From the UHGV virus genome UHGV-0214148: DNA of 64,000 nucleotides. The stretch is one strand, 5' to 3'. The position numbers were made by a program, and so were the translations under genes. The notes under the pieces are model-generated. The model was given only the letters and a program-made list of their open reading frames with translations. It had not been told where the DNA came from and made no database searches. Every line of letters begins with the position of its first letter. Position 1 is the first letter of the stretch. Shown here piece after piece: positions 3,724 through 58,700 of this stretch. This stretch comes from a virus.

Positions 3724-3760
3724 CACTCTCTCCTAGGTAATATATATCTGAGAAAAAATA
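3724..3760 (-). promoter_or_regulatory. conserved promoter-like motif copy 1
   Basis: Minus-strand consensus TATTTTTTCTCAGATATATATTACCTAGGTGAGAG about 45 nt upstream of the ATG, directly after a terminator. Confidence 0.5.
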
Positions 3761-6492: not shown

Positions 6493-6501
6493 CCCCCCCC
6501 C
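6493..6501. repeat. homopolymeric C9 tract (G9 on coding strand), intergenic between adhesin paralog and fibre-associated gene
   Basis: Read directly from sequence. Confidence 0.95.
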
Positions 6502-6535: not shown

Positions 6536-6979
6536 TTAGCTAATTCTCAAATCACGCAGTGCGCCTGTCGATTTCATCGCGTTTTGGAACGCGCCACTGA
6601 TGTTATTAGTCCAGTAATAATGCTGTCCGTTAATAACCTGCTGATAGGTCAGTGCGCAGGTGTTACCACCTAAATTTACGGTAATGTTAGAGGCTCTGCC
6701 TCCTTGTAAGTAAACCGCTAAAGTAGGCTTTGCGTTGGCAACTATCGTCGTTAACTGTAACTCAATACCTACTAAAGTTCCCACCCCGCAGTTACCCGCG
6801 TTTTGAATGGTTCCCTGATTTTTCTGGTTTAACGGCCAGCTTGGTCCTACCGCGCCCCATTTCTTACCTAAAGAATCGCTATATGCAGCGGTTGCAATTT
6901 TACAGCCCATAGATCTTCCCACCATTTGACTCATCATAAAAGGTCTACCCAATCCTAATTTACTACCAGCAGCGCTCAT
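6536..6979 (-). CDS. gp38-like tail-fibre adhesin paralog; annotated from internal ATG, true start probably ATG at 7044 disrupted by G10 tract
   Basis: Paralog of 7298..7843. Upstream ATG (7044..7042) with AGGAG RBS is followed by G10 then TAA; one extra G restores a 22-aa extension MGGGVTGSWVGSSAKNETGEQW that matches the N-terminus of the paralog. Confidence 0.6.
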   Translation of the reverse strand: MSAAGSKLGLGRPFMMSQMVGRSMGCKIATAAYSDSLGKKWGAVGPSWPLNQKNQGTIQNAGNCGVGTLVGIELQLTTIVANAKPTLAVYLQGGRASNITVNLGGNTCALTYQQVINGQHYYWTNNISGAFQNAMKSTGALRDLRIS

Positions 6980-7032
6980 CCATTGTTCGCCCGTTTCGTT
7001 CTTAGCCGAAGAACCGACCCACGAACCGGTTA

Positions 7033-7042
7033 CCCCCCCCCC
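7033..7042. repeat. homopolymeric C10 tract (G10 on coding strand) immediately after an ATG with AGGAG RBS; frameshifts the adhesin paralog N-terminus
   Basis: Read directly; minus strand AGGAGatcgcgATG-G9-TAA. Confidence 0.95.
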
Positions 7043-7056
7043 ATCGCGATCTCCTG

Positions 7057-7297: not shown

Positions 7298-7843
7298 TTA
7301 GACTACACTTATTGAAATTGTTGCACCGTTCTGATTAAATAACCAGTTGGTTGCCGTCTTAGCCTCATAGCGCCGGACGCCGTTACTGTAAGAGTACGGT
7401 AGAAAAGTAATCTTCGTTCCGTTAAACGAAAGCGTAATATTCTGATTTGGTCCATTAGTTAGGGCCATGTAGATAATACCAGTATTTTGTACTTGGCTAA
7501 GATGTGTGACGCTACAACCCAAGATCGAACCTGACACCGAACCGGCCGCATTTTGTGTTTGCACACGATTCGATACTGTAGAACCAGCACCCGTTGTTGT
7601 AGAGTTGTTCGAATACCCCCCATACGTATTTGTAATAGGAACCCACTGCGTGTTCGTAGCCTGCACCAAAACAACATAGGTTGATCGGCCTACAACGAGT
7701 TTAAGATCCTCTACGCTACGCCCGACCATCTGCGACATGTTAAATGGTGTGCTCAGTTTAAGCTTATTACCTGCCACACTCATCCACTCCTGACCGGTTA
7801 CTGCCTTTGCTGAGCTTCCAACCCAGCCGGATGCTACCCCCAT
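7298..7843 (-). CDS. gp38-like tail-fibre tip adhesin (181 aa)
   Basis: N-terminus MGVASGWVGSSAKAVTGQEWMSVAG...MSQMVGRS resembles, from memory, the conserved fibre-attachment N-terminus of T2-type gp38 adhesins; directly downstream of the long fibre gene, as in T-even 37-38 order. Confidence 0.55.
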   Translation of the reverse strand: MGVASGWVGSSAKAVTGQEWMSVAGNKLKLSTPFNMSQMVGRSVEDLKLVVGRSTYVVLVQATNTQWVPITNTYGGYSNNSTTTGAGSTVSNRVQTQNAAGSVSGSILGCSVTHLSQVQNTGIIYMALTNGPNQNITLSFNGTKITFLPYSYSNGVRRYEAKTATNWLFNQNGATISISVV

Positions 7844-20213: not shown

Positions 20214-21028
20214 TAGAGCACTCCCAGTAATTCAGTCACTGTTTTCCGAGCGGCACCAGACGCACCCATATAGCGACCGACCTCAATACTGCGCCACTCA
20301 AAACCGTAATAAATTTCTCGGGTGAGTAGGGTGTCTGCATTTGACAGCACGACGCTGTTGCCACGTCCCACCTGCTGCTGTAGTAACTTGGCTAATTCAC
20401 GATGATCCGTTTGTGAGAATTCTTTACGGTGGTATTGCGCGTGTTTCGCGGTATCCGATAACGGAATATAAGGAGGATCAGCATAAATCACGGCATCTTC
20501 AGGTGTCCGTGCTAATACAGAACGAAAGTCCTCACAAACAATTTCTAGATACTCAACTTCTGCGCAACGTTTAGCCCAATCCCGAATTTCTTCTAATGGA
20601 TAATAAACGCCATTCGGGTAACGTCCAAACGGAACATTGAACCCACCACTACTGTTATAGCGACACATCCCGTTATAACCGTGACGCATTAAGTATAAAA
20701 ACATTGCAGCACGTTCAACTTCGGTCATCGTTTTACCGCTATTAAACAGTTCACGACGTTCCATATACTTTACAGTGGTATTGCCGTCTAAGAACAACGG
20801 TTGCGATGCAGCGATCAGTTCTTCAGGCTGTTCACGCGCAACACAAAGTAAGCGTATCAAATCGGGGTTAGAATCCGATAGAATATACCGGCTGTAATTC
20901 GTATTTAGGAAAACAGACCCTGCGCCCACAAACGGTTCTACAAAGGTTGAACGTTTAGGTAAGACCTTTTGTAATTCACCCAAAACGCGTGTTTTCCCAC
21001 CCATCCATTTAATTATCGGTTTCCGCAT
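20213..21028 (-). CDS. dam: DNA adenine methyltransferase (Dam family, N6-A MTase)
   Basis: KWMGGK N-terminus, FVGAGSV SAM-binding motif, DPPY catalytic motif; collinear similarity to E. coli Dam. Confidence 0.88.
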   Translation of the reverse strand: MRKPIIKWMGGKTRVLGELQKVLPKRSTFVEPFVGAGSVFLNTNYSRYILSDSNPDLIRLLCVAREQPEELIAASQPLFLDGNTTVKYMERRELFNSGKTMTEVERAAMFLYLMRHGYNGMCRYNSSGGFNVPFGRYPNGVYYPLEEIRDWAKRCAEVEYLEIVCEDFRSVLARTPEDAVIYADPPYIPLSDTAKHAQYHRKEFSQTDHRELAKLLQQQVGRGNSVVLSNADTLLTREIYYGFEWRSIEVGRYMGASGAARKTVTELLGVL

Positions 21029-22007
21029 TATATCCGCCTTGTAACGATGACACTTCGTCGACTAACACCAATTTGACATGATTTTTCTGACGCTCCCAAC
21101 TGACGACGTTTTCGTCACGCACTAAAACAAATTCGTATTCGTAGGGGCGAAATTTAAATAATTCGACGGCCAGGTGCCTGAATGCAGGGTTGTTATTGAA
21201 ACACCCTATTTCTAATGGTGCCGCTGTTGTCGATGCAATTTGTAGAGCACGATACAATAAAGTCCGTCCGATACCACGACCCCGATGTGTCTCACTTACC
21301 GCAATGGCTTTTAATTCACACTCGTTAAGATTACGCAATTTAACTTGCACCGCGCCCACAATATCGTTGCCGTCCATCCAAACGTAGGTGTGGTGGTTGA
21401 CGTGGCGTACTAACTCCACCAACGTTTCGACTTGTGGCATGATTTGACGTGAGCGACTCACAGGGTCAGCGTTGATGTTTTCAACGACACTCGTACCCAA
21501 AAGCAACATAAGCTGTTCACGTTGTGCGGCAGTTAACTCTTTATAAAAATCGCCGGAAATGTTCTTCACGTTTGTTGGTAGAGCGATATCCAACAACGAG
21601 CGTGTACCTAAGCGATACGTAGTGTGGGTGTGTCTAAATCCTAAGTCATTAAGCTCAGCGATTTCTTCTACACCACTGGCGATTCGATTAAGGTACGTAA
21701 AACCGGTATAGTCGAGTACCAGTAGCAGGTTCAGTTTGTTCAAACAACCCGGTACAATTTCATGCATATACAAGCAGTGTAACGTTGGGTCGCCGTAAAT
21801 GTGTTTTGTGATGATAAACCCTTGGATTGTTTTTCCTTTTTGTAAAGAGAACGTATTCAGTTCACTATTGCACAACGCCTCACGAATCACAGCACCGTTA
21901 GGGCCCGATAAACATGCCTGAAGTTGAGGGTTGCGAATATCTCTACGTGCTAACCGACCTACTGTTAAATCCGTGGCGGTATGTTTTATAATCTTCATAA
22001 AAGCCAT
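21009..22007 (-). CDS. two-domain protein with C-terminal GNAT acetyltransferase fold
   Basis: C-terminal motif IAVSETHRGRGIGRTLLYRAL is a canonical acetyl-CoA binding motif A; 20-nt overlap with dam start. Confidence 0.7.
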   Translation of the reverse strand: MAFMKIIKHTATDLTVGRLARRDIRNPQLQACLSGPNGAVIREALCNSELNTFSLQKGKTIQGFIITKHIYGDPTLHCLYMHEIVPGCLNKLNLLLVLDYTGFTYLNRIASGVEEIAELNDLGFRHTHTTYRLGTRSLLDIALPTNVKNISGDFYKELTAAQREQLMLLLGTSVVENINADPVSRSRQIMPQVETLVELVRHVNHHTYVWMDGNDIVGAVQVKLRNLNECELKAIAVSETHRGRGIGRTLLYRALQIASTTAAPLEIGCFNNNPAFRHLAVELFKFRPYEYEFVLVRDENVVSWERQKNHVKLVLVDEVSSLQGGYNAETDN

Positions 22008-22101: not shown

Positions 22102-22773
22102 TCATGCAGAAGGGGCAGAGTTTGTAAAAGCAAGATTGGGTGTCAAGCCAGCTTTCCCTAATTTTTCATACAGGTAATTGAAAAATCTGAGATGGGCGTC
22201 GTAGTGGCCAGCCGCTACTCGCTGGCCGTAAACTTCTACCAAGTCAGGCGAAAACTTAATATGGCAGTTTTGTCTAGAGAACAAAGGTTGTTGCACCCCA
22301 CCCTTAATTAAGATGCGATACTTTTTACCGTCGTCTGTTACGGCGTGAAGAATATTTGTACTGAAATGGAAATAGATAGAAGGGTTAAAACACAACCAGG
22401 TGGCGGCATTGATTAGTAAGTCAGCTAACTTAACAGCGATTTTGTCAAGTTCAGGCCCTTCAAACTTATGCATTAACCGCAGAAGAATTTCAGTAATAAC
22501 CGTGCCTGTAAGTAATTTGTCTCTATTAAGACCAGGTGCAACCGCCAAAACATCACCATTATAAGTGCAGACAAGTGTGAATAAGTTGAAAGGCTGGTCT
22601 TGATAAAGTTCGAAAACCAGGTCAGTATACGGGCTAAAAGTTAAGAATTTCACCCCGAGTATTTCATTAACGCAGGGTAAAAGCTCAACTTTCACAGGCG
22701 GTTGAGCTTCGTTAACTTTAGTCTCGTTCTTTACAGCTTCTTCAATTACGGTTTTACCAATTTTCGGTGGCAT
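22102..22773 (-). CDS. hypothetical protein (223 aa)
   Basis: ORF track. Confidence 0.7.
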   Translation of the reverse strand: MPPKIGKTVIEEAVKNETKVNEAQPPVKVELLPCVNEILGVKFLTFSPYTDLVFELYQDQPFNLFTLVCTYNGDVLAVAPGLNRDKLLTGTVITEILLRLMHKFEGPELDKIAVKLADLLINAATWLCFNPSIYFHFSTNILHAVTDDGKKYRILIKGGVQQPLFSRQNCHIKFSPDLVEVYGQRVAAGHYDAHLRFFNYLYEKLGKAGLTPNLAFTNSAPSA

Positions 22774-22794: not shown

Positions 22795-23154
22795 TTAGTG
22801 TGTTGCGGCGTTAGTGATAAAACGCACATTCTTCGTGGTGCGTTTAATGGACGTGTTTGCAACGTAGTCCAACGCGGACTCTACGTGAACGGTTACTGAG
22901 CAACGACCCTTAACGGAATTAAAACTAATCTGGTATTTCAGACGAATCGCATCAGCAACTTTCATCATAATCGGCAAACTTAAACGTTCTGAGTGATCGT
23001 TCTTAATAGACGAGATAACGGGTTGTGAAACTTTCGCAAGCTGGGCAAGTTCACGCTGAGTAATGTCTTTTGTGGTCAAATGACGAATTACGTAAGACAA
23101 GTGAAGACCGAATTTACGCTTTGCCAGAATGATGGAATTGTGATTGTAAGCCAT
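22795..23154 (-). CDS. putative HTH DNA-binding regulator (119 aa)
   Basis: Segment ITQRELAQLAKVSQPVISSIKN resembles an XRE-type helix-turn-helix; follows a promoter-like motif copy. Confidence 0.5.
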   Translation of the reverse strand: MAYNHNSIILAKRKFGLHLSYVIRHLTTKDITQRELAQLAKVSQPVISSIKNDHSERLSLPIMMKVADAIRLKYQISFNSVKGRCSVTVHVESALDYVANTSIKRTTKNVRFITNAATH

Positions 23155-23203: not shown

Positions 23204-23238
23204 CTCTCACCTAGGTAATATATATCTGAGAAAAAATA
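23204..23238 (-). promoter_or_regulatory. conserved promoter-like motif copy 2
   Basis: Near-identical to copy 1; upstream of HTH gene. Confidence 0.5.
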
Positions 23239-23898: not shown

Positions 23899-23932
23899 TA
23901 TTGTTTTACCTTTTTACGCACGTTAAGTGAAA

Positions 23933-23960
23933 CCTCTCACAATGAGAGTAACAGTTGTAA
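23933..23960 (-). promoter_or_regulatory. promoter-like motif copy 6 (weak; shares GTGAGAG core)
   Basis: Upstream of tmk at similar spacing. Confidence 0.3.
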
Positions 23961-23964
23961 TAAT

Positions 23965-24006
23965 TTACAATAAAAAAAGAAACCCGCCCCTACCGTTAAG
24001 TAGGGG
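23965..24006 (-). terminator. intrinsic terminator
   Basis: CCCCTAC-loop-GTAGGGG + T-run. Confidence 0.65.
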
Positions 24007-24013
24007 TAAGGTT

Positions 24014-24619
24014 TTATTGGTGATCAACAATCGGATCACTCCACACTTCTGACGTTTGTGGTGCGGTGAGGTTAGCAGCCTGTGCAGATGTTACGCACAG
24101 CAAGACTAACCCTTGTTTAGCAAGATAATGTTGCATTCTTGCAGCCTGCACAGCGGTGTCCACAATAACGAGCTCAGCGCCACGTAGAAGCGTTAGAGCC
24201 GCTTGACCCTCTTGCGGTGTGGTTAAGGCATCACTGTCGTCCAGAATGCGTTTAAGGCGGTTATACGCCAGCCCAGTTACATTACTTCGACCTGCACGAA
24301 GATCGACAACCATATCGTTGTATTCCCCCACCACTTGTTGCGTCGAATTGGGATAAAATCGAAACGCGGCACGGCGGCGTTTACGACGCACCTCAGAAAT
24401 CGCGCGTTGTAAAACCAGTAAAACGTATTTCGGTGCCGCTTCGCTATTCGGACGACGCATCTTAGCTAAACGTGCAGCTAAATCCAAAATTTTCGTTAAG
24501 GGATAGCGGTGTTTAAACCCGTCACGTTCGATAGTAACGCCACGCTTAGGCAACTTGCCCGTTTTGTTGATATACGATACTGTAATCAATAGTAATGAAT
24601 CGAGAATCATCTCTGACAT
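24014..24619 (-). CDS. hypothetical protein (201 aa)
   Basis: ORF track. Confidence 0.7.
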   Translation of the reverse strand: MSEMILDSLLLITVSYINKTGKLPKRGVTIERDGFKHRYPLTKILDLAARLAKMRRPNSEAAPKYVLLVLQRAISEVRRKRRRAAFRFYPNSTQQVVGEYNDMVVDLRAGRSNVTGLAYNRLKRILDDSDALTTPQEGQAALTLLRGAELVIVDTAVQAARMQHYLAKQGLVLLCVTSAQAANLTAPQTSEVWSDPIVDHQ

Positions 24620-24633
24620 TACAAGGCCCTCTC

Positions 24634-25005
24634 TTAGAACCCCTCAAGAACAGCTTTCACAAATTCATAAACCGTGCGTCGGTGTTCTTCAAGCGGATAA
24701 ACAAACTTAGAATAATCGTTGTTCCAGACAACCGGATAGAGGTCGCCGTCACAACTTAAATAGCTCTTACGAACCATGTAATAATCTAAACCTACACGGA
24801 AGTTTAACGACAGGCTCCCGTGTTTACTACAAACGTGTAGCTGGAGCGATTTCACACCGTCATGGGTCGGCGATTCAATCGTTTCCGCATACAATACATC
24901 CGAACACTGTTCTATAGTGCTAACGACATCTCTGAGGTTGTTGTCCGCATCGATGGTCGCTTTTCGGAGAGCGTCGGTGTATTGCTGAAGTTCTCGATAG
25001 AACAT
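24634..25005 (-). CDS. hypothetical protein (123 aa)
   Basis: ATG with AGGAG RBS; overlaps the 3' end of 24912..25544 by 94 nt in another frame. Confidence 0.6.
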   Translation of the reverse strand: MFYRELQQYTDALRKATIDADNNLRDVVSTIEQCSDVLYAETIESPTHDGVKSLQLHVCSKHGSLSLNFRVGLDYYMVRKSYLSCDGDLYPVVWNNDYSKFVYPLEEHRRTVYEFVKAVLEGF

Positions 25006-25544
25006 CCTGCTAATCTCCTGTCTCTACCGTATGGCAGAGGAAATGCTTTGTGTTCAAATTCTGCAACGACATACGCAGGATAGAACAAAAGGTATTTATA
25101 GAACGTAGCTAACGTAACGTCTTTCGGGGTGGCTAAGAAGTAATTAAGATCGGGGTTGTCTGGAAAAGCAAAATGCAACCCTGTGTATACCTGACCTTTG
25201 TACTCCCCATTAAAGGGCGTCACTGCACATCGTGGACGTGTTGGTTCGACGTGTAACCAACGACTCCCTACGTGATAAACACCACGTACCGCCGCGTTTC
25301 GTGTTTTACCCAAATAACGGCAACGGATATTCTTTTCCCACGCAGCACGTTGGGTGGGTGAACCCAGAGAAACAAACCGCGTTAAAGCTTCAGGTGTAAA
25401 GTAATCAAAAATGCCCGTCGGTAAATACCAGCACGCCTTATCGATTCGTACCACTCTCCAACCAGGACGAAAACCCACAGCGTAACGCTCTACACCAAAA
25501 GTATATCTAGACCCGTCGTGAAACGGTACGAATCTTGCAGCCAT
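24912..25544 (-). CDS. hypothetical protein (210 aa; 3' end overlaps next gene, possible frameshift or true overlap)
   Basis: ORF track. Confidence 0.6.
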   Translation of the reverse strand: MAARFVPFHDGSRYTFGVERYAVGFRPGWRVVRIDKACWYLPTGIFDYFTPEALTRFVSLGSPTQRAAWEKNIRCRYLGKTRNAAVRGVYHVGSRWLHVEPTRPRCAVTPFNGEYKGQVYTGLHFAFPDNPDLNYFLATPKDVTLATFYKYLLFYPAYVVAEFEHKAFPLPYGRDRRLAGCSIENFSNTPTLSEKRPSMRTTTSEMSLAL

Positions 25545-25545
25545 T

Positions 25546-26013
25546 TTAGATTTCCTTTATCATTTCCCTGCATTCAGTACGGAATCCCATTTTCTCATAC
25601 AAGGAGATAGCTTTAACGTTGTTGTCTAACACATCCAAACTCATCCAACCACAACCTTTGGACTTTCCATATTCACGGACTTTGTCCATAAGTGCACGAC
25701 CCACCCCTTGAGAACGCGCTTCGGGAATCACGTAGTAGTTCCCAATATAAACAAATGTGTCCTTCGAGCAAGAACCCATTGAAAAGGTCATAATTCCCAG
25801 AAGTTGTTCGTTGTCATCCACGGCACACGCACAGAGATAATCTTGGGGCCAGATCTCTTCTAAGTGTTCAATTGGGTTGAACGTGTCGCGTCCGGTTAAC
25901 TGACTAATACGCACTTTCTCTTCTGCGAACAACATGTTGTGCAGTTTGAGTACCTGGTCGCCGTATAACTTTCCGTATTTACTGTCGGGTTTGAGAATAA
26001 TAGTGATACGCAT
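25546..26013 (-). CDS. GNAT family N-acetyltransferase
   Basis: Motif A VIPEARSQGVGRALM and C-terminal NNVKAISLYEKMGF. Confidence 0.75.
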   Translation of the reverse strand: MRITIILKPDSKYGKLYGDQVLKLHNMLFAEEKVRISQLTGRDTFNPIEHLEEIWPQDYLCACAVDDNEQLLGIMTFSMGSCSKDTFVYIGNYYVIPEARSQGVGRALMDKVREYGKSKGCGWMSLDVLDNNVKAISLYEKMGFRTECREMIKEI

Positions 26014-27146
26014 TATTTAACCTCAATCAGTGACAACCTGCACCACTCCAGTAACCCTTCCGCAACGCGCACTAACGAGGTAGTAAACGCATCTTCTAAA
26101 CGCAGTGCGTTTTTATAACGTACGGTAGCGTCGCGTAACTCCCGCCCTTCAAGCGACTTAAGTTCCTTACGCATACGCTGAATCTCATCATAAATTCCTG
26201 TATACCCAACACTACGTCGTTTCGCACCACGCTGACGTAACGCTCGGATAATGTTTCTAACGGCGTCGAGTGCTGAACCGATTTCGTGCAAGTTTAGAGA
26301 TTTGATTGTGTGGCCAAAATCACCATCGCGAGCAATCGCCCATTCAATCTTACCGCTGTCGTGTTCAACGACCACCACGTTACCTGGCCACGGATATGCC
26401 TTCACCGTTTTAAACGGATCGATAATACCGAACAGCCCTGCGCTTCGTTTAATCGCCCAGTTCGTTGACCGGCCCACTTTCTCCAAACCGCTCTCGGTAA
26501 CTTTCTTGCTCTTACCGATTAACGTACGTGTTTTAACGGTATACTCGTTGACCATCGCATCCATTGCACTCAGGTTCTTACTGAACTCAATACATGCTTT
26601 TACGTTAGGCTTGTCTTCTAAACAAACTTTGGTTGTCCAACTTCCCGTGTCACAGTCAACCGGTTCTAAAGTGTCCTTGATACCGAGTAAACTTAAACGT
26701 GCTTCTAACTTCTGTAGCTTGCGCTCTAACGACGATGCTTTGGACGTCGCTTCTTTCAGTTCATTAATAACTTCTTTACCGGCGGCTTCCGCGAAGTCGA
26801 TGAAACGTAAGGCCAGCTGCTTAGAATGTTTACCTGCGAATTTTCCAGACGCTTTGGCTCCTGCCACTGCTGCTTTTCCAGCAACGCGTCCAACTCCCTT
26901 AACCGCTCTGCCGGTCGCACGCGCGACCGCTTTACCTACCCCTGCGTAAGGCTCGGTGTCCGCAACAAATTGCGCGCGTTCCATCATCGCTGCGGACTCC
27001 AACGCAACGTGGACATCATCTAAAGCCCACCGTTTTCGGATAGCGACAACCGCTGGATAATTGTCTTTAACATTAAGCGATTCTAACGCGACCAATCGAT
27101 CGTAGTCATCGCAAAGGACTTCTAAATCGGAATCTAATGTTGACAT
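26013..27146 (-). CDS. hypothetical protein (377 aa) with Ala/Gly/Lys-rich segment
   Basis: ORF track. Confidence 0.75.
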   Translation of the reverse strand: MSTLDSDLEVLCDDYDRLVALESLNVKDNYPAVVAIRKRWALDDVHVALESAAMMERAQFVADTEPYAGVGKAVARATGRAVKGVGRVAGKAAVAGAKASGKFAGKHSKQLALRFIDFAEAAGKEVINELKEATSKASSLERKLQKLEARLSLLGIKDTLEPVDCDTGSWTTKVCLEDKPNVKACIEFSKNLSAMDAMVNEYTVKTRTLIGKSKKVTESGLEKVGRSTNWAIKRSAGLFGIIDPFKTVKAYPWPGNVVVVEHDSGKIEWAIARDGDFGHTIKSLNLHEIGSALDAVRNIIRALRQRGAKRRSVGYTGIYDEIQRMRKELKSLEGRELRDATVRYKNALRLEDAFTTSLVRVAEGLLEWCRLSLIEVK

Positions 27147-27196
27147 CCTTTACCCCATTTTAAGCTAAAGCGGGGAGAAGCCCGCCCTGACTAACT

Positions 27197-27745
27197 TCAT
27201 AATAAGCGTAGGTCTTCTAACCACTTAGATGCATCCGTAACATGATAATAACAAGGGATGTTCAGTGACTGTGCGTAGCGAACACCCATCGCCGTACCCC
27301 CTTTTGGATTTCCCTTTTTATCATGCTCGGCGTAATAATAGACGGCGTCTACATGATCGTCCAAAGAATCACCGGATACAATATTTAAGTTTCGTCCATG
27401 CAACGCCCAAGCTATTTCCGATAGCTTATCAGGATTAGGGTGAAGCGATGCCACAATCCCACGATAACGGACGTCTTGTGGAATAACGCGAAAATCCACA
27501 TTCGGATGTAACTTACGTAACCACAACTTACGTTCGTCAGGCAAATAACAAATATGTGGACCTGGTTCAGTACGTGCTAACATAAACTGTAATTGGTCTG
27601 GTCCTTTGTAACAACCGCCTGACCGCGTTTCGATACTGTGCTGTTTATTACGAAGAATTTTGAACCCACGTTGCAACACATCCAACATTTCTTGCATCGT
27701 GTCTTCGGGCGTTTCTCGAGAACCAATAATAGCAATTTTATACAT
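27197..27745 (-). CDS. hypothetical protein, possibly DprA/SLOG-like Rossmann fold
   Basis: N-terminal KIAIIGSRE resembles the GSR motif of DprA/Smf-type domains; weak. Confidence 0.35.
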   Translation of the reverse strand: MYKIAIIGSRETPEDTMQEMLDVLQRGFKILRNKQHSIETRSGGCYKGPDQLQFMLARTEPGPHICYLPDERKLWLRKLHPNVDFRVIPQDVRYRGIVASLHPNPDKLSEIAWALHGRNLNIVSGDSLDDHVDAVYYYAEHDKKGNPKGGTAMGVRYAQSLNIPCYYHVTDASKWLEDLRLL

Positions 27746-27769
27746 TTGTCACCTCCATACTGAAGTTGT

Positions 27770-27817
27770 GAAGTGAAAAAAAAAGAAAGCAGGAGAGAAC
27801 CCTGAAAAGGTTCTCTC
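27770..27817 (-). terminator. intrinsic terminator
   Basis: GGAGAGAACC-CTGAAAA-GGTTCTCTCC + T-run. Confidence 0.7.
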
Positions 27818-27832
27818 CTATCGGTGATGTTA

Positions 27833-28471
27833 TCACGCTTCTAAACCACTTAAAACGACGGTCTCGAGTAACGCTTTGCCCATCCAGACGTCCAACTCAC
27901 CATCTAAGCCCCCTAAAGGACGTTTATTCAGTTCGTTGTTGTAATTAAGTCCGTCAAGGGTTTTATTCGTAATAATTTGCCCAATATGAAGCGGTAGAAT
28001 AAATCGATTTCGTGCGCTATAAATAAACGAATCACATTCGTAAATTACCACATAGCGTTCGAGATCCTCATCATACTCAACGTGACACTGCGAGCCCGTG
28101 TCCCATGCACGTGACAAAACCATACCACGGTCTTGACACATCTTCTCCACCGACACTTTCGCGGACTCTGCCCATTTATCGTAATTTTTAGGTTGGCCGT
28201 TTTCGAAATCGAACCAATCCAGATACTTACCGGGAATATCAAGAAAGTCGTTCAATTGAAGTTTCGTGTAAGATATCATCACCGCGTCGTTAATATCATT
28301 GCGGTTAGTTAACTTTACTCGATACCGACCTTCCGGTGTGGGTGCGCCTATTAAAGAAACATCCACTTTCTCAGCCGAAAGCTTTTTACGTACACTGCCG
28401 CTATTACAGTAACTAACGAGGTTGAGTAAGTTCTGTCTATGACCAACTTCAAAATCAATTACAAAAGACAT
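27833..28471 (-). CDS. hypothetical protein (start revised to ATG 28471 with GGAG RBS)
   Basis: ORF track start is GTG at 28495 overlapping upstream stop; ATG at 28471 has a better RBS. Confidence 0.7.
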   Translation of the reverse strand: MSFVIDFEVGHRQNLLNLVSYCNSGSVRKKLSAEKVDVSLIGAPTPEGRYRVKLTNRNDINDAVMISYTKLQLNDFLDIPGKYLDWFDFENGQPKNYDKWAESAKVSVEKMCQDRGMVLSRAWDTGSQCHVEYDEDLERYVVIYECDSFIYSARNRFILPLHIGQIITNKTLDGLNYNNELNKRPLGGLDGELDVWMGKALLETVVLSGLEA

Positions 28472-28494
28472 ACAAACTCCGCGGGGGTTAATCA

Positions 28495-28887
28495 CTAATA
28501 CCCGTATAATGGGTACCGTGCGGTGATCTCATCACCAACATAGAAAGTTAAACGTTGAACATTAATACTTTTATTTGCGTAGGGTACAGTTTCTAACGTT
28601 ACCTTTACACTGGCAGAACAACTACCCGGATCAACAAACTGATATGTACGCCGTTTGATGTTTACCAAATAGTAGCCGCCTGCCGGGCACAATTCGGTTT
28701 TACCGTAATTTACCGTGGCGAACTCATCGTTTTGAACTGCAACAACTGGCTGGTCGGTAGATTTAAAAACGACGGGTTTATCGCCCGGCACTGTAGGTTC
28801 AAAACGACTAATATCGTGCGGTTTAAATTCCGCGAACGCGGAAAATGAAAGTAACGTTAGAAATAGGGTAATGACAGTTCGTTTCAT
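28495..28887 (-). CDS. secreted protein (130 aa; N-terminal signal peptide)
   Basis: MKRTVITLFLTLLSFSAFA signal peptide. Confidence 0.7.
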   Translation of the reverse strand: MKRTVITLFLTLLSFSAFAEFKPHDISRFEPTVPGDKPVVFKSTDQPVVAVQNDEFATVNYGKTELCPAGGYYLVNIKRRTYQFVDPGSCSASVKVTLETVPYANKSINVQRLTFYVGDEITARYPLYGY

Positions 28888-29363
28888 CGGTCTACCTCAT
28901 CAAGATGATCGCGTAGCCATGGCATCGACTCTAAGCGCGGAATCATATTCCGTGTGTTCGGCGAAAACCATAGCGCTTCACGATATTTCTTTTTGAAACG
29001 TTCCCAGTGATACGAGAAAGGTTTGGGTGTAAAACCGCGCTCTTTTAGCACCTCCTCCCAAACCAAGTCTTTAATAAAATCGTCCACTAAAATTAATACC
29101 AACACTTTCCATTTACTGCGTCGGTAGTGCCGTGTAAAAGATTTGCGGAGATCAGAAAAGTCCTCTCGACGACGAGAACGTACTGCTGGAGTTGCCTTCT
29201 CTTTAAATTGCGAACAAGGATTATGTTGTAGTATCGTTACAGGAACTCCCCGAACACGGCCTGTACGTAAATCAACCTCGTGTGCGGGGATAACTTCAAC
29301 GCAACGTAACACTTTTGCTTTATTGCCTTCCAAGCACCGCGTCTCATATTCGACACGAATCAT
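28884..29363 (-). CDS. hypothetical basic protein (159 aa)
   Basis: ORF track. Confidence 0.7.
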   Translation of the reverse strand: MIRVEYETRCLEGNKAKVLRCVEVIPAHEVDLRTGRVRGVPVTILQHNPCSQFKEKATPAVRSRRREDFSDLRKSFTRHYRRSKWKVLVLILVDDFIKDLVWEEVLKERGFTPKPFSYHWERFKKKYREALWFSPNTRNMIPRLESMPWLRDHLDEVDR

Positions 29364-29382
29364 TTTGGGCTCTCAACTGTTT

Positions 29383-29859
29383 CTAATAAATCTTATCCGC
29401 AACAGAGAGAAAGATGGGGGTGTTTTCAATAAAATCCACCAAATATCCTTCTTCCGGCGGGGCGTATGACGAATCAACGTTACTGTTCGTCATACGAAAA
29501 TACCGACGGGAGTCACTGGCAATAAACCATCGGTCTATTTGGAAGCCTTTTTTGGAAAAGAAACACAACCCGTCTATGTTTGAGGGATGGACACGACACA
29601 TCACCATTTGACGATCTGAATTAAGTTGAACGTATTTCAGTAAAAAGGAACCTACGCCGCTACGACGAGAACCTTCGGCCACTACCAGATAGATAAGATT
29701 CCCCGGTTCCCAGATTGCAACCCCATGTGTAATATCGTCTTCAACAGCCAACGTGATTCTAACTGGCGTTTCCCGAATCGAATTTAAGTCGTTGACGTAT
29801 TCACGTAATTCAGGAAATTTAGCGGAAATTTTGTCTTCGGTAATATCTAACTGCTGCAT
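29383..29859 (-). CDS. GNAT family N-acetyltransferase
   Basis: Motif VVAEGSRRSGVGSFLL and FFSKKGF. Confidence 0.7.
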   Translation of the reverse strand: MQQLDITEDKISAKFPELREYVNDLNSIRETPVRITLAVEDDITHGVAIWEPGNLIYLVVAEGSRRSGVGSFLLKYVQLNSDRQMVMCRVHPSNIDGLCFFSKKGFQIDRWFIASDSRRYFRMTNSNVDSSYAPPEEGYLVDFIENTPIFLSVADKIY

Positions 29860-30539
29860 TATTGTTCCCCTATCGATAAAACGTTTTTAACAAATTCATC
29901 CCACGTGGTGTTCCCACCAGAAGTAAATAAACTGCTAAGTGGAACGTTTCGATGCTGTGGAATAATCGCATCGAGTTTCGTTACTGGAACTTCGGCCCAT
30001 AAAGCCCAACCGTACAACCCCTCCACTGTTTTTCTCTCACCACGTAGGGATGGCACCCACCAGGTAAACTGTATGAATCTTTTACCGCGACAGATTTTAA
30101 GGCTGGTAGTAAAACCGTGGTCTAACATCCGAACGTCGTCAAACTTACAATTAATCGAGAAAAGACCATAACGGGCAAGTAATCTCCTTATCTGTAACAT
30201 TAGGTCGTTTTGGTATTTGTTCAGTGTGGCAATGTCTACAAAAACCTGTCCCTTCCCAACCCCAAACCCTTTCTTTTCTAAATGCTCCGCTATTAACGCA
30301 GACGTACTCCCCTCTACACCCGGACAATCTAGACTGCCGGATAAAGGTACTGCACGATAATAGCGATGGAGCGTCTCTTGAAAAGCCGCCGTAAGAATTT
30401 TTTCCTCTTTAACGAAATCAACAATTTCCCCATTAGAGGTGACCAGCGGTCCAACCTTCAGGTCCTGAATAGGTATCAGTAACGTTCTGGTCATTAAGCG
30501 TAATGGTTCCACAATAGCACTCCTTCTTTTAAGTCTCAC
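29859..30539 (-). CDS. hypothetical protein (226 aa)
   Basis: ORF track. Confidence 0.7.
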   Translation of the reverse strand: MRLKRRSAIVEPLRLMTRTLLIPIQDLKVGPLVTSNGEIVDFVKEEKILTAAFQETLHRYYRAVPLSGSLDCPGVEGSTSALIAEHLEKKGFGVGKGQVFVDIATLNKYQNDLMLQIRRLLARYGLFSINCKFDDVRMLDHGFTTSLKICRGKRFIQFTWWVPSLRGERKTVEGLYGWALWAEVPVTKLDAIIPQHRNVPLSSLFTSGGNTTWDEFVKNVLSIGEQ

Positions 30540-30554
30540 AGTATGTTTAAAAAT

Positions 30555-30597
30555 TGTAAAAATAAAAAGAAGTAACCTCTACCCGAAGGTAGAGGTT
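30555..30597 (-). terminator. intrinsic terminator
   Basis: AACCTCTACC-CGAA-GGTAGAGGTT + T-run. Confidence 0.65.
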
Positions 30598-30601
30598 AAT
30601 G

Positions 30602-50417: not shown

Positions 50418-50443
50418 CTCTCACCTAGGTAATATATATCTGA
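50418..50443 (-). promoter_or_regulatory. conserved promoter-like motif copy 3
   Basis: Core CAGATATATATTACCTAGGTGAGAG upstream of small lipoprotein gene. Confidence 0.5.
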
Positions 50444-58673: not shown

Positions 58674-58700
58674 ATCTCACTAAGGTAATATCTATCTGAG
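58674..58700 (-). promoter_or_regulatory. conserved promoter-like motif copy 4 (degenerate)
   Basis: CTCAGATAGATATTACCTTAGTGAGAT upstream of 57983..58624. Confidence 0.45.

Follow-up and report, generated by a model that had tools for sequence, protein, structure and literature searches.

A candidate polyamine acetyltransferase adjoining an internal head protein gene in a conserved block of an SPN3US-like jumbo phage

In nucleus-forming phages, the ejected material is first held inside a membrane-bound early-infection vesicle, and the phiKZ proteins of family PF12699 are proteolyzed and packaged and, as experiments have shown, are injected into that vesicle together with the DNA (bioRxiv 10.1101/2024.03.24.586471). 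A member of this family is encoded in the DNA studied here, a 64,000-nt stretch of the virus genome UHGV-0214148 (“the window”, at this full length), within a minus-strand gene block at positions 24014-30539. The stop codon of its gene overlaps by 1 nt the start codon of a gene for a GNAT acetyltransferase (GNAT1 below), and this pair is the main subject of this report. Two further acetyltransferases are termed GNAT2 and GNAT3. An earlier note, made from the letters of the window alone, had listed open reading frames (ORFs) of the block, all of which were found on the minus strand with the same boundaries; it had left out the identity of the PF12699 protein.

For the jumbo phage SPN3US, particles were purified through two CsCl gradients, and average counts of peptide-spectrum matches (PSMs) were reported for wild-type virions and tailless heads (PMC10052503, Table S2). 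Three proteins from the corresponding region were classed as head components and were found in all replicates of wild-type and tailless particles: the internal head protein gp94 (48 PSMs in wild type, 34 in heads), the GNAT1 ortholog gp95 (41 and 32), and gp97 (12.7 and 11). The protein gp91 (41 PSMs in wild type, 0 in heads) was classed as a tail component. The non-virion class held gp98 (ca. 4 and ca. 3), the thymidylate kinase gp100 (ca. 3 and ca. 6), and gp104 (trace; 3 PSMs in a 37-slice head experiment), and gp88, gp89, gp90, gp92, gp93, and gp96 were absent from the virion proteome table (PMC10052503). The prohead protease site is S/A/G-X-E (AXE in SPN3US). Cleavage of gp94 was given as occurring “possibly” at ALE-22, ARE-51, or AME-60, and gp95 had an intact N-terminus without a protease site (PMC10052503, Table S6).

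A separate line of work concerns polyamines. Li et al. (PNAS 2023; PMC9992855) expressed candidate phage spermidine N-acetyltransferases (SATs) in E. coli delta-speG. The proteins YP_007237670 of phiEaH2 and YP_009292176 of Caitlin made N-acetylspermidine, and YP_009153389 of SPN3US, which is gp95, made none in the same assay (PMC9992855). The authors speculated that phage SATs would be useful if they acted early in infection. In the literature searched, neither line cites the result of the other: the word “acetyltransferase” is absent from four papers on the SPN3US head, and the polyamine paper contains none of “capsid”, “packaged”, “ejected”, or “head protein”, with “virion” occurring once in an unrelated sense (PMC9992855). 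Both lines bear on the gene family of GNAT1. The three window genes that correspond to the SPN3US head components are listed here.

Positions 26013-27146, minus strand: internal head protein of phiKZ type (PF12699) and ortholog of gp94 from SPN3US, identified by Pfam and phrog_2497.
Positions 25546-26013, minus strand: GNAT1, SSAT-like polyamine acetyltransferase candidate, identified by Pfam, PDB matches, and positional orthology.
Positions 24634-25005, minus strand: gp97 homolog, whose SPN3US ortholog is a small head protein of low copy number (phrog_8535, E=4.2e-41).

The product of 26013-27146 matched PF12699 (phiKZ_IP) over residues 50-367 with 31.5 bits (cut-off 27; E=1.4e-7) and the PHROG family of internal head proteins (phrog_2497) with E=2.9e-74, and it was 59% identical to SPN3US gp94. 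The ALE-22 of this protein was invariant in seven orthologs. In the window protein there are exactly two AXE sites, both of the form VALE/S (E22 and E50; the slash marks the putative cleavage position); they sit in an acidic N-terminal segment, which is followed by a basic stretch rich in Ala, Gly, and Lys.

GNATs carry an R/Q-x-x-G-x-G/A pyrophosphate-binding motif and a conserved Tyr in the next helix. In GNAT1 the acetyl-CoA motif R100-S-Q-G-V-G105 and Y139 (in LYEKMGF) were invariant in seven orthologs, and the protein matched Acetyltransf_1 (PF00583) with 67.8 bits (cut-off 20.7; E=1.3e-18) and PF13508 with 51.1 bits (cut-off 27). Its top PDB sequence matches were human SSAT2, nourseothricin acetyltransferase, and polyamine or thialysine acetyltransferases. 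Identity was 49% to the phiEaH2 protein, 45% to that of Caitlin, and 47% to SPN3US gp95. The SAT-positive genes of phiEaH2 and Caitlin each lie directly downstream of an internal head protein gene and are therefore positional orthologs of GNAT1. Their products share with GNAT1 a length of 154-155 aa, the VLDNN and RxxGxG motifs, and the Tyr of LY..GF; SAT activity has been shown for those enzymes, whereas GNAT1 is a candidate judged from sequence.

Residue 130 of GNAT1 (window ca. 25624-25626) is the Asp of VLDNN, which was found in the window lineage, Erskinevirus, Machinavirus, and Wellingtonvirus and which aligns with the Asp in VLDWN of SSAT2; in the SPN3US branch, including the SAT-negative gp95, the motif reads VLGNN (14 sequences surveyed, a word-indexed homolog search for GNAT1 having returned only seven proteins). 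Asp130 is shared with the SAT-positive enzymes, and from this we infer a correlation between Asp or Gly at this position and SAT activity. For the acidic residue aligned with Asp130, one indirect statement in the literature, on E152 of hSSAT1, was treated as a lead rather than as evidence. GNAT1 is most likely an acetyltransferase of spermidine or a related polyamine, as judged from these family relationships.

Homology and gene order were observed directly. A megablast of the block against phage genomes gave zero near-identity matches; relatives were found only by distant-DNA and protein searches, which led to SPN3US-like jumbo phages of Salmonella, Erwinia, Escherichia, and Proteus, with top identities of ca. 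59% (internal head protein) and 50% (GNAT1). The block matched SPN3US gp87-gp98 one to one, in the same order and with the same PHROG families. The order was the same for 10 of the 11 genes, at 36-68% identity, in six relatives (SPN3US, Asesino, phiEaH2, Caitlin, Huxley, and Wellington) that represent the four genera Seoulvirus, Erskinevirus, Machinavirus, and Wellingtonvirus; the exceptions were a divergent gp87 slot and the lack of gp91 in Machinavirus. The flanks were also shared: upstream lie RuvC and genes for virion structure, and downstream lie thymidylate kinase, a helix-turn-helix (HTH) gene, a 332-aa GNAT, and a Dam methylase. All long ORFs at 19-35 kb of the window are close-packed on the minus strand. 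Compared with its relatives, the window has a 50-nt spacer in place of the small gp93 gene, nothing in the gp99 slot, and a highly divergent gene in the gp87 slot. The Derbicusvirus phage Phobos keeps a sub-block consisting of the internal head protein, the acetyltransferase, gp96-like and overlapping gp97-like genes, a gp98-like gene, and the thymidylate kinase gene (Tmk); its acetyltransferase has diverged to ca. 30% identity, with the adjacency of internal head protein and GNAT retained.

Because gene order is kept across genera, the “accessory cluster” of the earlier note is a misnomer. As judged by this comparison, the block is clade-conserved and not a loose accessory island, its core extending to Derbicusvirus, and for the most part it adds new representatives to gene families already known, in an arrangement that is likewise known and conserved. 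Its annotation is accordingly changed to a clade-core block with head and tail components, with two start codons corrected (below). Proteins of the block were only 24-60% identical to those of SPN3US and 30-68% identical to those of the other relatives, which suggests that the window phage represents a new genus-level lineage of SPN3US-like (phiKZ-related) jumbo phages.

The exact GNAT1 protein was indexed in 65 blocks of a public assembly collection, and relatives at 97% and 88% identity lie on 220-kb and 100-kb contigs labeled Salmonella enterica. Near-identical copies of window proteins (homologs P0045, P0046, and P0043) were found on 100-220-kb contigs labeled Salmonella enterica serovars Wangata and Braenderup, and a partial copy occurs in an assembly of Enterobacter quasiroggenkampii. 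The host is probably Salmonella, and the phage is probably uncultured or unrecognized; it may have been carried along with bacterial cultures in a carrier state or as a contaminant, which points to an enterobacterial host.

The reading that we prefer, to which a probability of about 55% is assigned as a whole, is that the block encodes head-internal cargo together with a capsid-delivered polyamine acetyltransferase. The cargo set would comprise the PF12699 protein, with a protease-cleavable N-terminal segment, GNAT1, and the gp97 homolog, all encoded in the second of two predicted transcription units (unit 2, below). GNAT1 would be an SSAT-like, acetyl-CoA-dependent N-acetyltransferase whose substrate, going by its orthologs, would be spermidine or a related polyamine. 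It would enter the prohead uncleaved, in tens of copies or fewer, and would then reach the cell interior along with the DNA and internal proteins, such that host polyamines would be acetylated before any phage gene is expressed. SAT activity is known from the orthologs of phiEaH2 and Caitlin and head location from that of SPN3US; packaging and activity of the window GNAT1, its injection, and a benefit to the phage are proposed. The neighboring internal head protein may also escort GNAT1, an idea that is prompted by the 1-nt stop/start overlap, the adjacency over five genera, and the similar PSM counts of the two SPN3US proteins. The fullest version, in which a polyamine N-acetyltransferase preloaded in the capsid is escorted by the PF12699 protein, injected, and neutralizes spermidine within seconds and before transcription, is put forward tentatively and is itself doubtful.

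Several observations weigh against the preferred reading. Packaging and SAT activity are documented for different orthologs, and SPN3US gp95, the only one known to be packaged, gave no N-acetylspermidine. GNAT1 is only 45-50% identical to any characterized ortholog. No NCBIfam model reached its cut-off for GNAT1 (NF053587, SpmdActasePaiA, scored 25.3 bits versus 250), and the protein was therefore not filed as a SpeG or PaiA equivalog. Two positives and one negative lie behind the correlation of Asp or Gly with SAT activity. In SPN3US virions gp95 is of low abundance (ca. 41 PSMs), and the support for an escort consists only of adjacency, similar PSM counts, and the lack of a cleaved targeting peptide in gp95. 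Finally, an enzyme delivered from the capsid might be cut off, inside the early-infection vesicle, from cytosolic acetyl-CoA and polyamines.

The first of the two main alternatives is that GNAT1 is a protein acetyltransferase (lysine or N-terminal) for which polyamine acetylation is secondary and which is injected to modify a host protein, for example RNA polymerase or a ribosomal protein (compare phiKMV Rac or RimI), or a co-packaged phage protein. The packaged SPN3US ortholog is conserved yet gave no N-acetylspermidine, and jumbo-phage GNATs have been predicted to be Rac-like or like ribosomal-protein GNATs (PMC7824862). The best NCBIfam match of GNAT1 was indeed RimI (E=2.1e-12), but its 47 bits lay far under the cut-off (86 bits), and no member of the family is known to have a protein substrate. 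The PDB matches favor SSAT, thialysine, and polyamine enzymes, and two orthologs acetylate spermidine in vivo (PMC9992855). We consider this alternative rather unlikely. The proposal of the earlier note that the GNATs serve host takeover by acetylating host translation or defense factors was supported in part: takeover is plausible for GNAT1 only, whose ortholog gp95 is a head protein, and acetylation of translation or defense factors did not hold up, the demonstrated substrate of two orthologs being spermidine. The SPN3US orthologs of GNAT2 and GNAT3 are absent from virions or present at a trace, non-virion level.

The other main alternative, which is somewhat less probable, is that GNAT1 is an ordinary cytoplasmic enzyme that tunes polyamine pools (for DNA packaging or charge balance), with the presence of its ortholog in SPN3US heads reflecting passive trapping. 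Low virion abundance and the lack of a cleaved targeting peptide fit this account; the SPN3US authors warned that proteins with low PSM counts can be trapped, and the authors of the polyamine study treated the protein as an expressed enzyme (PMC9992855). On the other hand, gp95 satisfied the virion criteria of the SPN3US authors, as it was present in every replicate and averaged at least 10 PSMs. It had a sequence coverage of 48-78% and a head-to-wild-type ratio of 1.1, compared with ca. 3 PSMs for the non-virion thymidylate kinase; its gene moreover lies between two head-protein genes in an order kept in five genera.

The toxin-like functions raised by the earlier note, with the GNATs as TacT/AtaT-type tRNA acetyltransferases or mobile accessory genes for host killing, are very improbable: stand-alone GNATs of ca. 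155-160 aa are of the size of GNAT toxins and three occur within 9 kb, but Pfam and PHROG assignments of the genes beside the GNATs gave an internal head protein and clade-specific unknowns with no antitoxin-like (ribbon-helix-helix or HTH) gene, PADLOC gave zero matches to defense models for 10 proteins, gene positions are fixed across genera, the gp88 ortholog matches a deposited PDB entry, and the section of PMC9992855 on the expression of orthologs in E. coli for metabolite analysis speaks of no toxicity.

If the capsid-delivered polyamine acetyltransferase is real, its benefit could lie in blunting polyamine-dependent nucleases or CRISPR adaptation, or in loosening polyamine-condensed DNA as it leaves the early-infection vesicle. 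Virion delivery would be the earliest timing possible for the early action on which the authors of the polyamine study speculated. The change from Asp to Gly in the SPN3US branch would then mark a lineage in which the packaged enzyme has been retargeted to another substrate. Joined together, the proteomic and polyamine results suggest the testable idea that an enzyme modifying polyamines is delivered along with the DNA by some nucleus-forming jumbo phages; the main value of the analysis lies in this combined proposal.

The remaining acetyltransferases and the SLOG protein of the region are as follows.

Positions 29383-29859, minus strand: GNAT2, ortholog of SPN3US gp88 (60% identity; phrog_7861; PDB 7DQG).
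Positions 21009-22007, minus strand, outside the block: GNAT3, 332 aa with a C-terminal GNAT domain (Acetyltransf_1, E=1.6e-12; phrog_8663; 30% identity to gp104).
Positions 27197-27745, minus strand: single-domain SLOG Rossmann protein, nearest to the DprA clade by predicted fold.

GNAT2 matched phrog_7861 (“acetyltransferase”) with E=1.7e-70 and, over residues 4-155, PDB 7DQG (“putative acetyltransferase”) with E=6.5e-61; the sequence of SPN3US gp88 agrees with 7DQG over the aligned region, and a literature search for this entry found no paper. Its acetyl-CoA motif is R65-R-S-G-V-G70, and Phe stands where Tyr is usual (CFFSKKGF). In the profile searches by which the earlier note had proposed to sub-classify the GNATs, Pfam placed GNAT1 and GNAT3 in the superfamily, whereas GNAT2 fell below the Pfam cut-off (PF13508, 22.9 bits versus 27) and GNAT1 found no NCBIfam equivalog. 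Both GNATs that the note had named within the block are GNATs, GNAT1 by its Pfam score and GNAT2 by phrog_7861 and 7DQG, and the high density that it remarked upon stands, GNAT3 being the third and SPN3US having three at the same positions (gp88, gp95, and gp104). In pairwise BLASTP the three gave E>0.1, so they represent three unrelated lineages, and recent paralogy was ruled out. A possible fourth GNAT at 7298-7843, a marginal profile match in a scan of all window ORFs, was discarded, since Pfam identifies it as a Gp38 adhesin. A 223-aa ORF at 22102-22773, between the HTH gene and GNAT3, lacks a homolog in the six relatives and matches neither Pfam nor PHROG families; it may be a lineage-specific ORFan.

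The protein that the earlier note called DprA/SLOG-like has 182 aa and was modeled as one alpha/beta domain. The predicted structure has the Rossmann-like DprA core fold, which is common to LOG, YpsA, MoCo-carrier, and ThsA-SLOG domains, and its conserved motifs are IGSRET, SGGCxKGPDQ, LHGRNLxI, and GGTAMGV. Homologs were found only within the SPN3US-like phage clade. Searches gave no Pfam match at E<=0.1 (including PF02481), no NCBIfam match, no PDB sequence or profile match, and no PADLOC match. DprA (PDB 3MAJ, 4LJK, and 3UQZ) and ShosA (8ZVA) were 17-22% identical to it; DprA chains in the PDB have 216-353 aa, and many DprA proteins have SAM-like N-terminal and winged-helix C-terminal domains, both of which the window protein lacks. 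As a single domain without these flanks, it was classed as a SLOG-fold protein resembling DprA and not as a member of the DprA family; the fold part of the label stood, and “DprA-like” is based solely on the modeled fold. The sole hint of single-stranded DNA binding is the motif G8-S9-R10, which is nearly invariant. That the protein is a nucleotide-binding or nucleotide-processing protein (a LOG-like hydrolase or a sponge for nucleotide signals) or a mimic of a DprA-like defense component (ShosA), and not a DNA-binding recombination mediator, is a possibility that we entertain with considerable reserve. Between this gene and that of the internal head protein, all six relatives have a small gene (SPN3US gp93, ca. 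90 aa); in the window (27146-27197) its place is taken by the 50-nt spacer, which holds a short GC hairpin (GCGGG...CCCGC).

The terminators that the earlier note saw punctuating the block were confirmed as three strong minus-strand sites, each a hairpin followed by a T-run.

Positions 30573-30598, minus strand: intrinsic terminator with an 11-bp stem (5 GC pairs) and a T-run; it closes the upstream unit and forms the 5' boundary of unit 1.
Positions 27790-27820, minus strand: strong intrinsic terminator with a 14-bp stem (6 GC pairs) and a long T-run, between units 1 and 2.
Positions 23987-24006, minus strand: intrinsic terminator, a strong hairpin with a T-run, which ends unit 2.

These predicted terminators split the block into two minus-strand units, ca. 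30539-27833 and 27745-24014. Unit 1 carries, in order, a divergent unknown, GNAT2, a basic unknown, a Sec-exported small protein, and a tail protein homolog; unit 2 carries the DprA-like SLOG protein and then, as the proposed module of head-internal cargo, the PF12699 protein, GNAT1, and the gp96, gp97, and gp98 homologs. Terminator-like sites in the scanned region numbered 18 versus 12.8 +/- 4.2 in shuffled sequences, which is a modest excess only. Directly 3' of the unit-2 terminator, 23913-23937 is a variable slot: five of six metagenomic variants (L008 and L010-L013) carry an insert of ca. 700 nt that encodes a 204-aa ORFan without a Pfam or PHROG match, and the insert is absent from the window and from L009.

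The sequence TTTTACAACT was rejected as a post-terminator promoter, its 8 matches versus 9.0 expected showing no enrichment. A 17-nt motif, TCAGATATATATTACCT(AGGTGAGAG), has four intergenic minus-strand copies in the window versus 0.14 expected, and it agrees with the published predicted promoter of phiKZ and 201phi2-1, which has a TATATTAC core (PMC7058600).

Positions 3735-3751, 23213-23229, 50427-50443, and 58683-58699, minus strand: copies of the TCAGATATATATTACCT motif, one of which precedes the HTH regulator gene at 22795-23154.

A motif scan of the window found no copy inside the block at 24014-30539. We take the phiKZ-type motif to be a mark of early genes, and on that assumption its absence from the block fits non-early, virion-type genes.

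The remaining genes of the block are listed here.

Positions 29859-30539, minus strand: divergent gene in the gp87 slot (phrog_8034, E=1.1e-11; 24% identity, to SPN3US only; no Pfam match).
Positions 28884-29363, minus strand: gp89 homolog, basic (isoelectric point 9.9; phrog_9187, E=1.7e-64; 46-58% identity in six relatives).
Positions 28495-28887, minus strand: gp90 homolog, a small secreted or periplasmic protein with a predicted Sec-type signal peptide.
Positions 27833-28495, minus strand: gp91 homolog, ortholog of an SPN3US tail protein (phrog_10571, E=3.3e-60; synteny).
Positions 24912-25544, minus strand: gp96 homolog (phrog_9255, E=9.9e-62; synteny).
Positions 24014-24619, minus strand: gp98 homolog, basic (phrog_8075, E=7.9e-76; SPN3US gp98 is non-virion).

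The two corrected starts concern the first and fourth of these. The true start of the ORF at 29859-30539 is probably the GTG at 30512, which has AAGGAG ahead of it, and that of the gp91 homolog is probably the ATG at 28471 instead of the GTG at 28495, because the phrog_10571 match begins at residue 9, gene calls give 212 aa, and a ribosome-binding site (RBS) is present.

The signal peptide that the earlier note had noticed in the product of 28495-28887 was borne out by conservation of the Sec-type pattern in seven orthologs. The N-terminus consists of MKR followed by TVITLFLTLLSFSAFA, with predicted cleavage after AFA; the conserved pattern is MKR, TVITLFLTLLSFS, and AFA/E, without a lipobox. 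The orthologs also share two invariant Cys, with no Cys before residue 67, and a C-terminal RYPLYGY. The predicted fold is all-beta and belongs to no assignable family. Structural relatives in BFVD were only uncharacterized proteins of ca. 126-135 aa from Erwinia phages Kwan, Wellington, and Huxley (14-20% identity; TM ca. 0.5-0.57), a hint that small beta-proteins form a family of diverged paralogs in this jumbo-phage group; within the window no paralog was detectable.

The gene of the gp96 homolog shares 94 nt (24912-25005) with that of the gp97 homolog; in five relatives the shared stretch measures 40-94 nt, with a constant frame offset. A programmed frameshift was ruled out, since no slippery heptamer is conserved, the tail of gp96 varies, and gp97 is served by an RBS of its own. 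As this RBS and the ATG of gp97 lie inside the poorly conserved C-terminal tail of gp96, the arrangement is a plain overlap. In variant L010 (3576-3677; window 25108-25438), ca. 330 nt of the gp96 homolog are replaced by ca. 100 nt, a net deletion of ca. 230 nt that suggests that gp96 is dispensable or that may be an assembly artifact.

Outside the block, the window has a second Gp38-like tail-fiber adhesin (6536-6979), whose match to the Gp38_N domain is confined to the second half of that domain. Upstream of it (6536-7050, minus strand), an ATG is followed by nine more G's and TAA and is read as M-G-G-G-stop; the poly-G tract corresponds to a C10 run on the plus strand at 7033-7042. The tract was compared between the window and ten independent metagenome scaffolds (ca. 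225 kb) of the same phage, with its length including the G of the ATG.

G8: L015; in frame, 168-aa adhesin.
G9: L021, L022, and L024; out of frame.
G10: the window, L016, L017, L018, and L023; out of frame.
G11: L019 and L020; in frame, 169-aa adhesin.

The reading frame was thus open in 3/10 scaffolds and out of frame in 7/10, and the N-terminus of the full-length adhesin parallels that of the intact neighboring adhesin (Gp38_N). A second intergenic tract (6493-6501) varies from 9 to 11, and 1511-1519 was listed alongside it. The pattern looks like hypermutable poly-G phase variation that switches a receptor-binding protein on and off, with the caveat that assemblies can contain errors in homopolymer length. 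Campylobacter phages are known to vary by this mechanism (Sorensen et al. 2021, as cited in PMC10877375), and no report of it in jumbo phages was found in the literature searched.

Among known systems, the SPN3US pair gp94 and gp95 resembles that of the window: both are orthologs, at 59% and 47% identity, gp94 has the same ALE-22, and gp95 is uncleaved. It differs in that gp95 has Gly for an otherwise invariant Asp and is SAT-negative. The inner-body proteins of phiKZ (gp92-95, 97, 162, and 163) share with the window protein the PF12699 family and N-terminal protease-type sites; these members are packaged and several have been shown to be injected, whereas the window protein is of a divergent, low-copy type, and SPN3US gp94 is placed outside the abundant paralog family A of that phage (gp53 and gp54; PMC5694885). 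The adjacency of PF12699 and GNAT genes was seen only in the SPN3US-like clade and Derbicusvirus among the phages compared, which did not include phiKZ. T4 offers the same concept: Alt and IPI-III are packed with the DNA, injected, and act before phage gene expression, and targeting and processing by the prohead protease are shared in concept (PMC5694885). Alt, an ADP-ribosyltransferase, has a capsid-targeting sequence that is cleaved, whereas GNAT1 is a GNAT whose SPN3US ortholog lacks a cleaved leader, and the two have no sequence relationship. If the preferred reading is correct, GNAT1 would be an injected effector that modifies a metabolite, unlike T4 Alt, which modifies protein.

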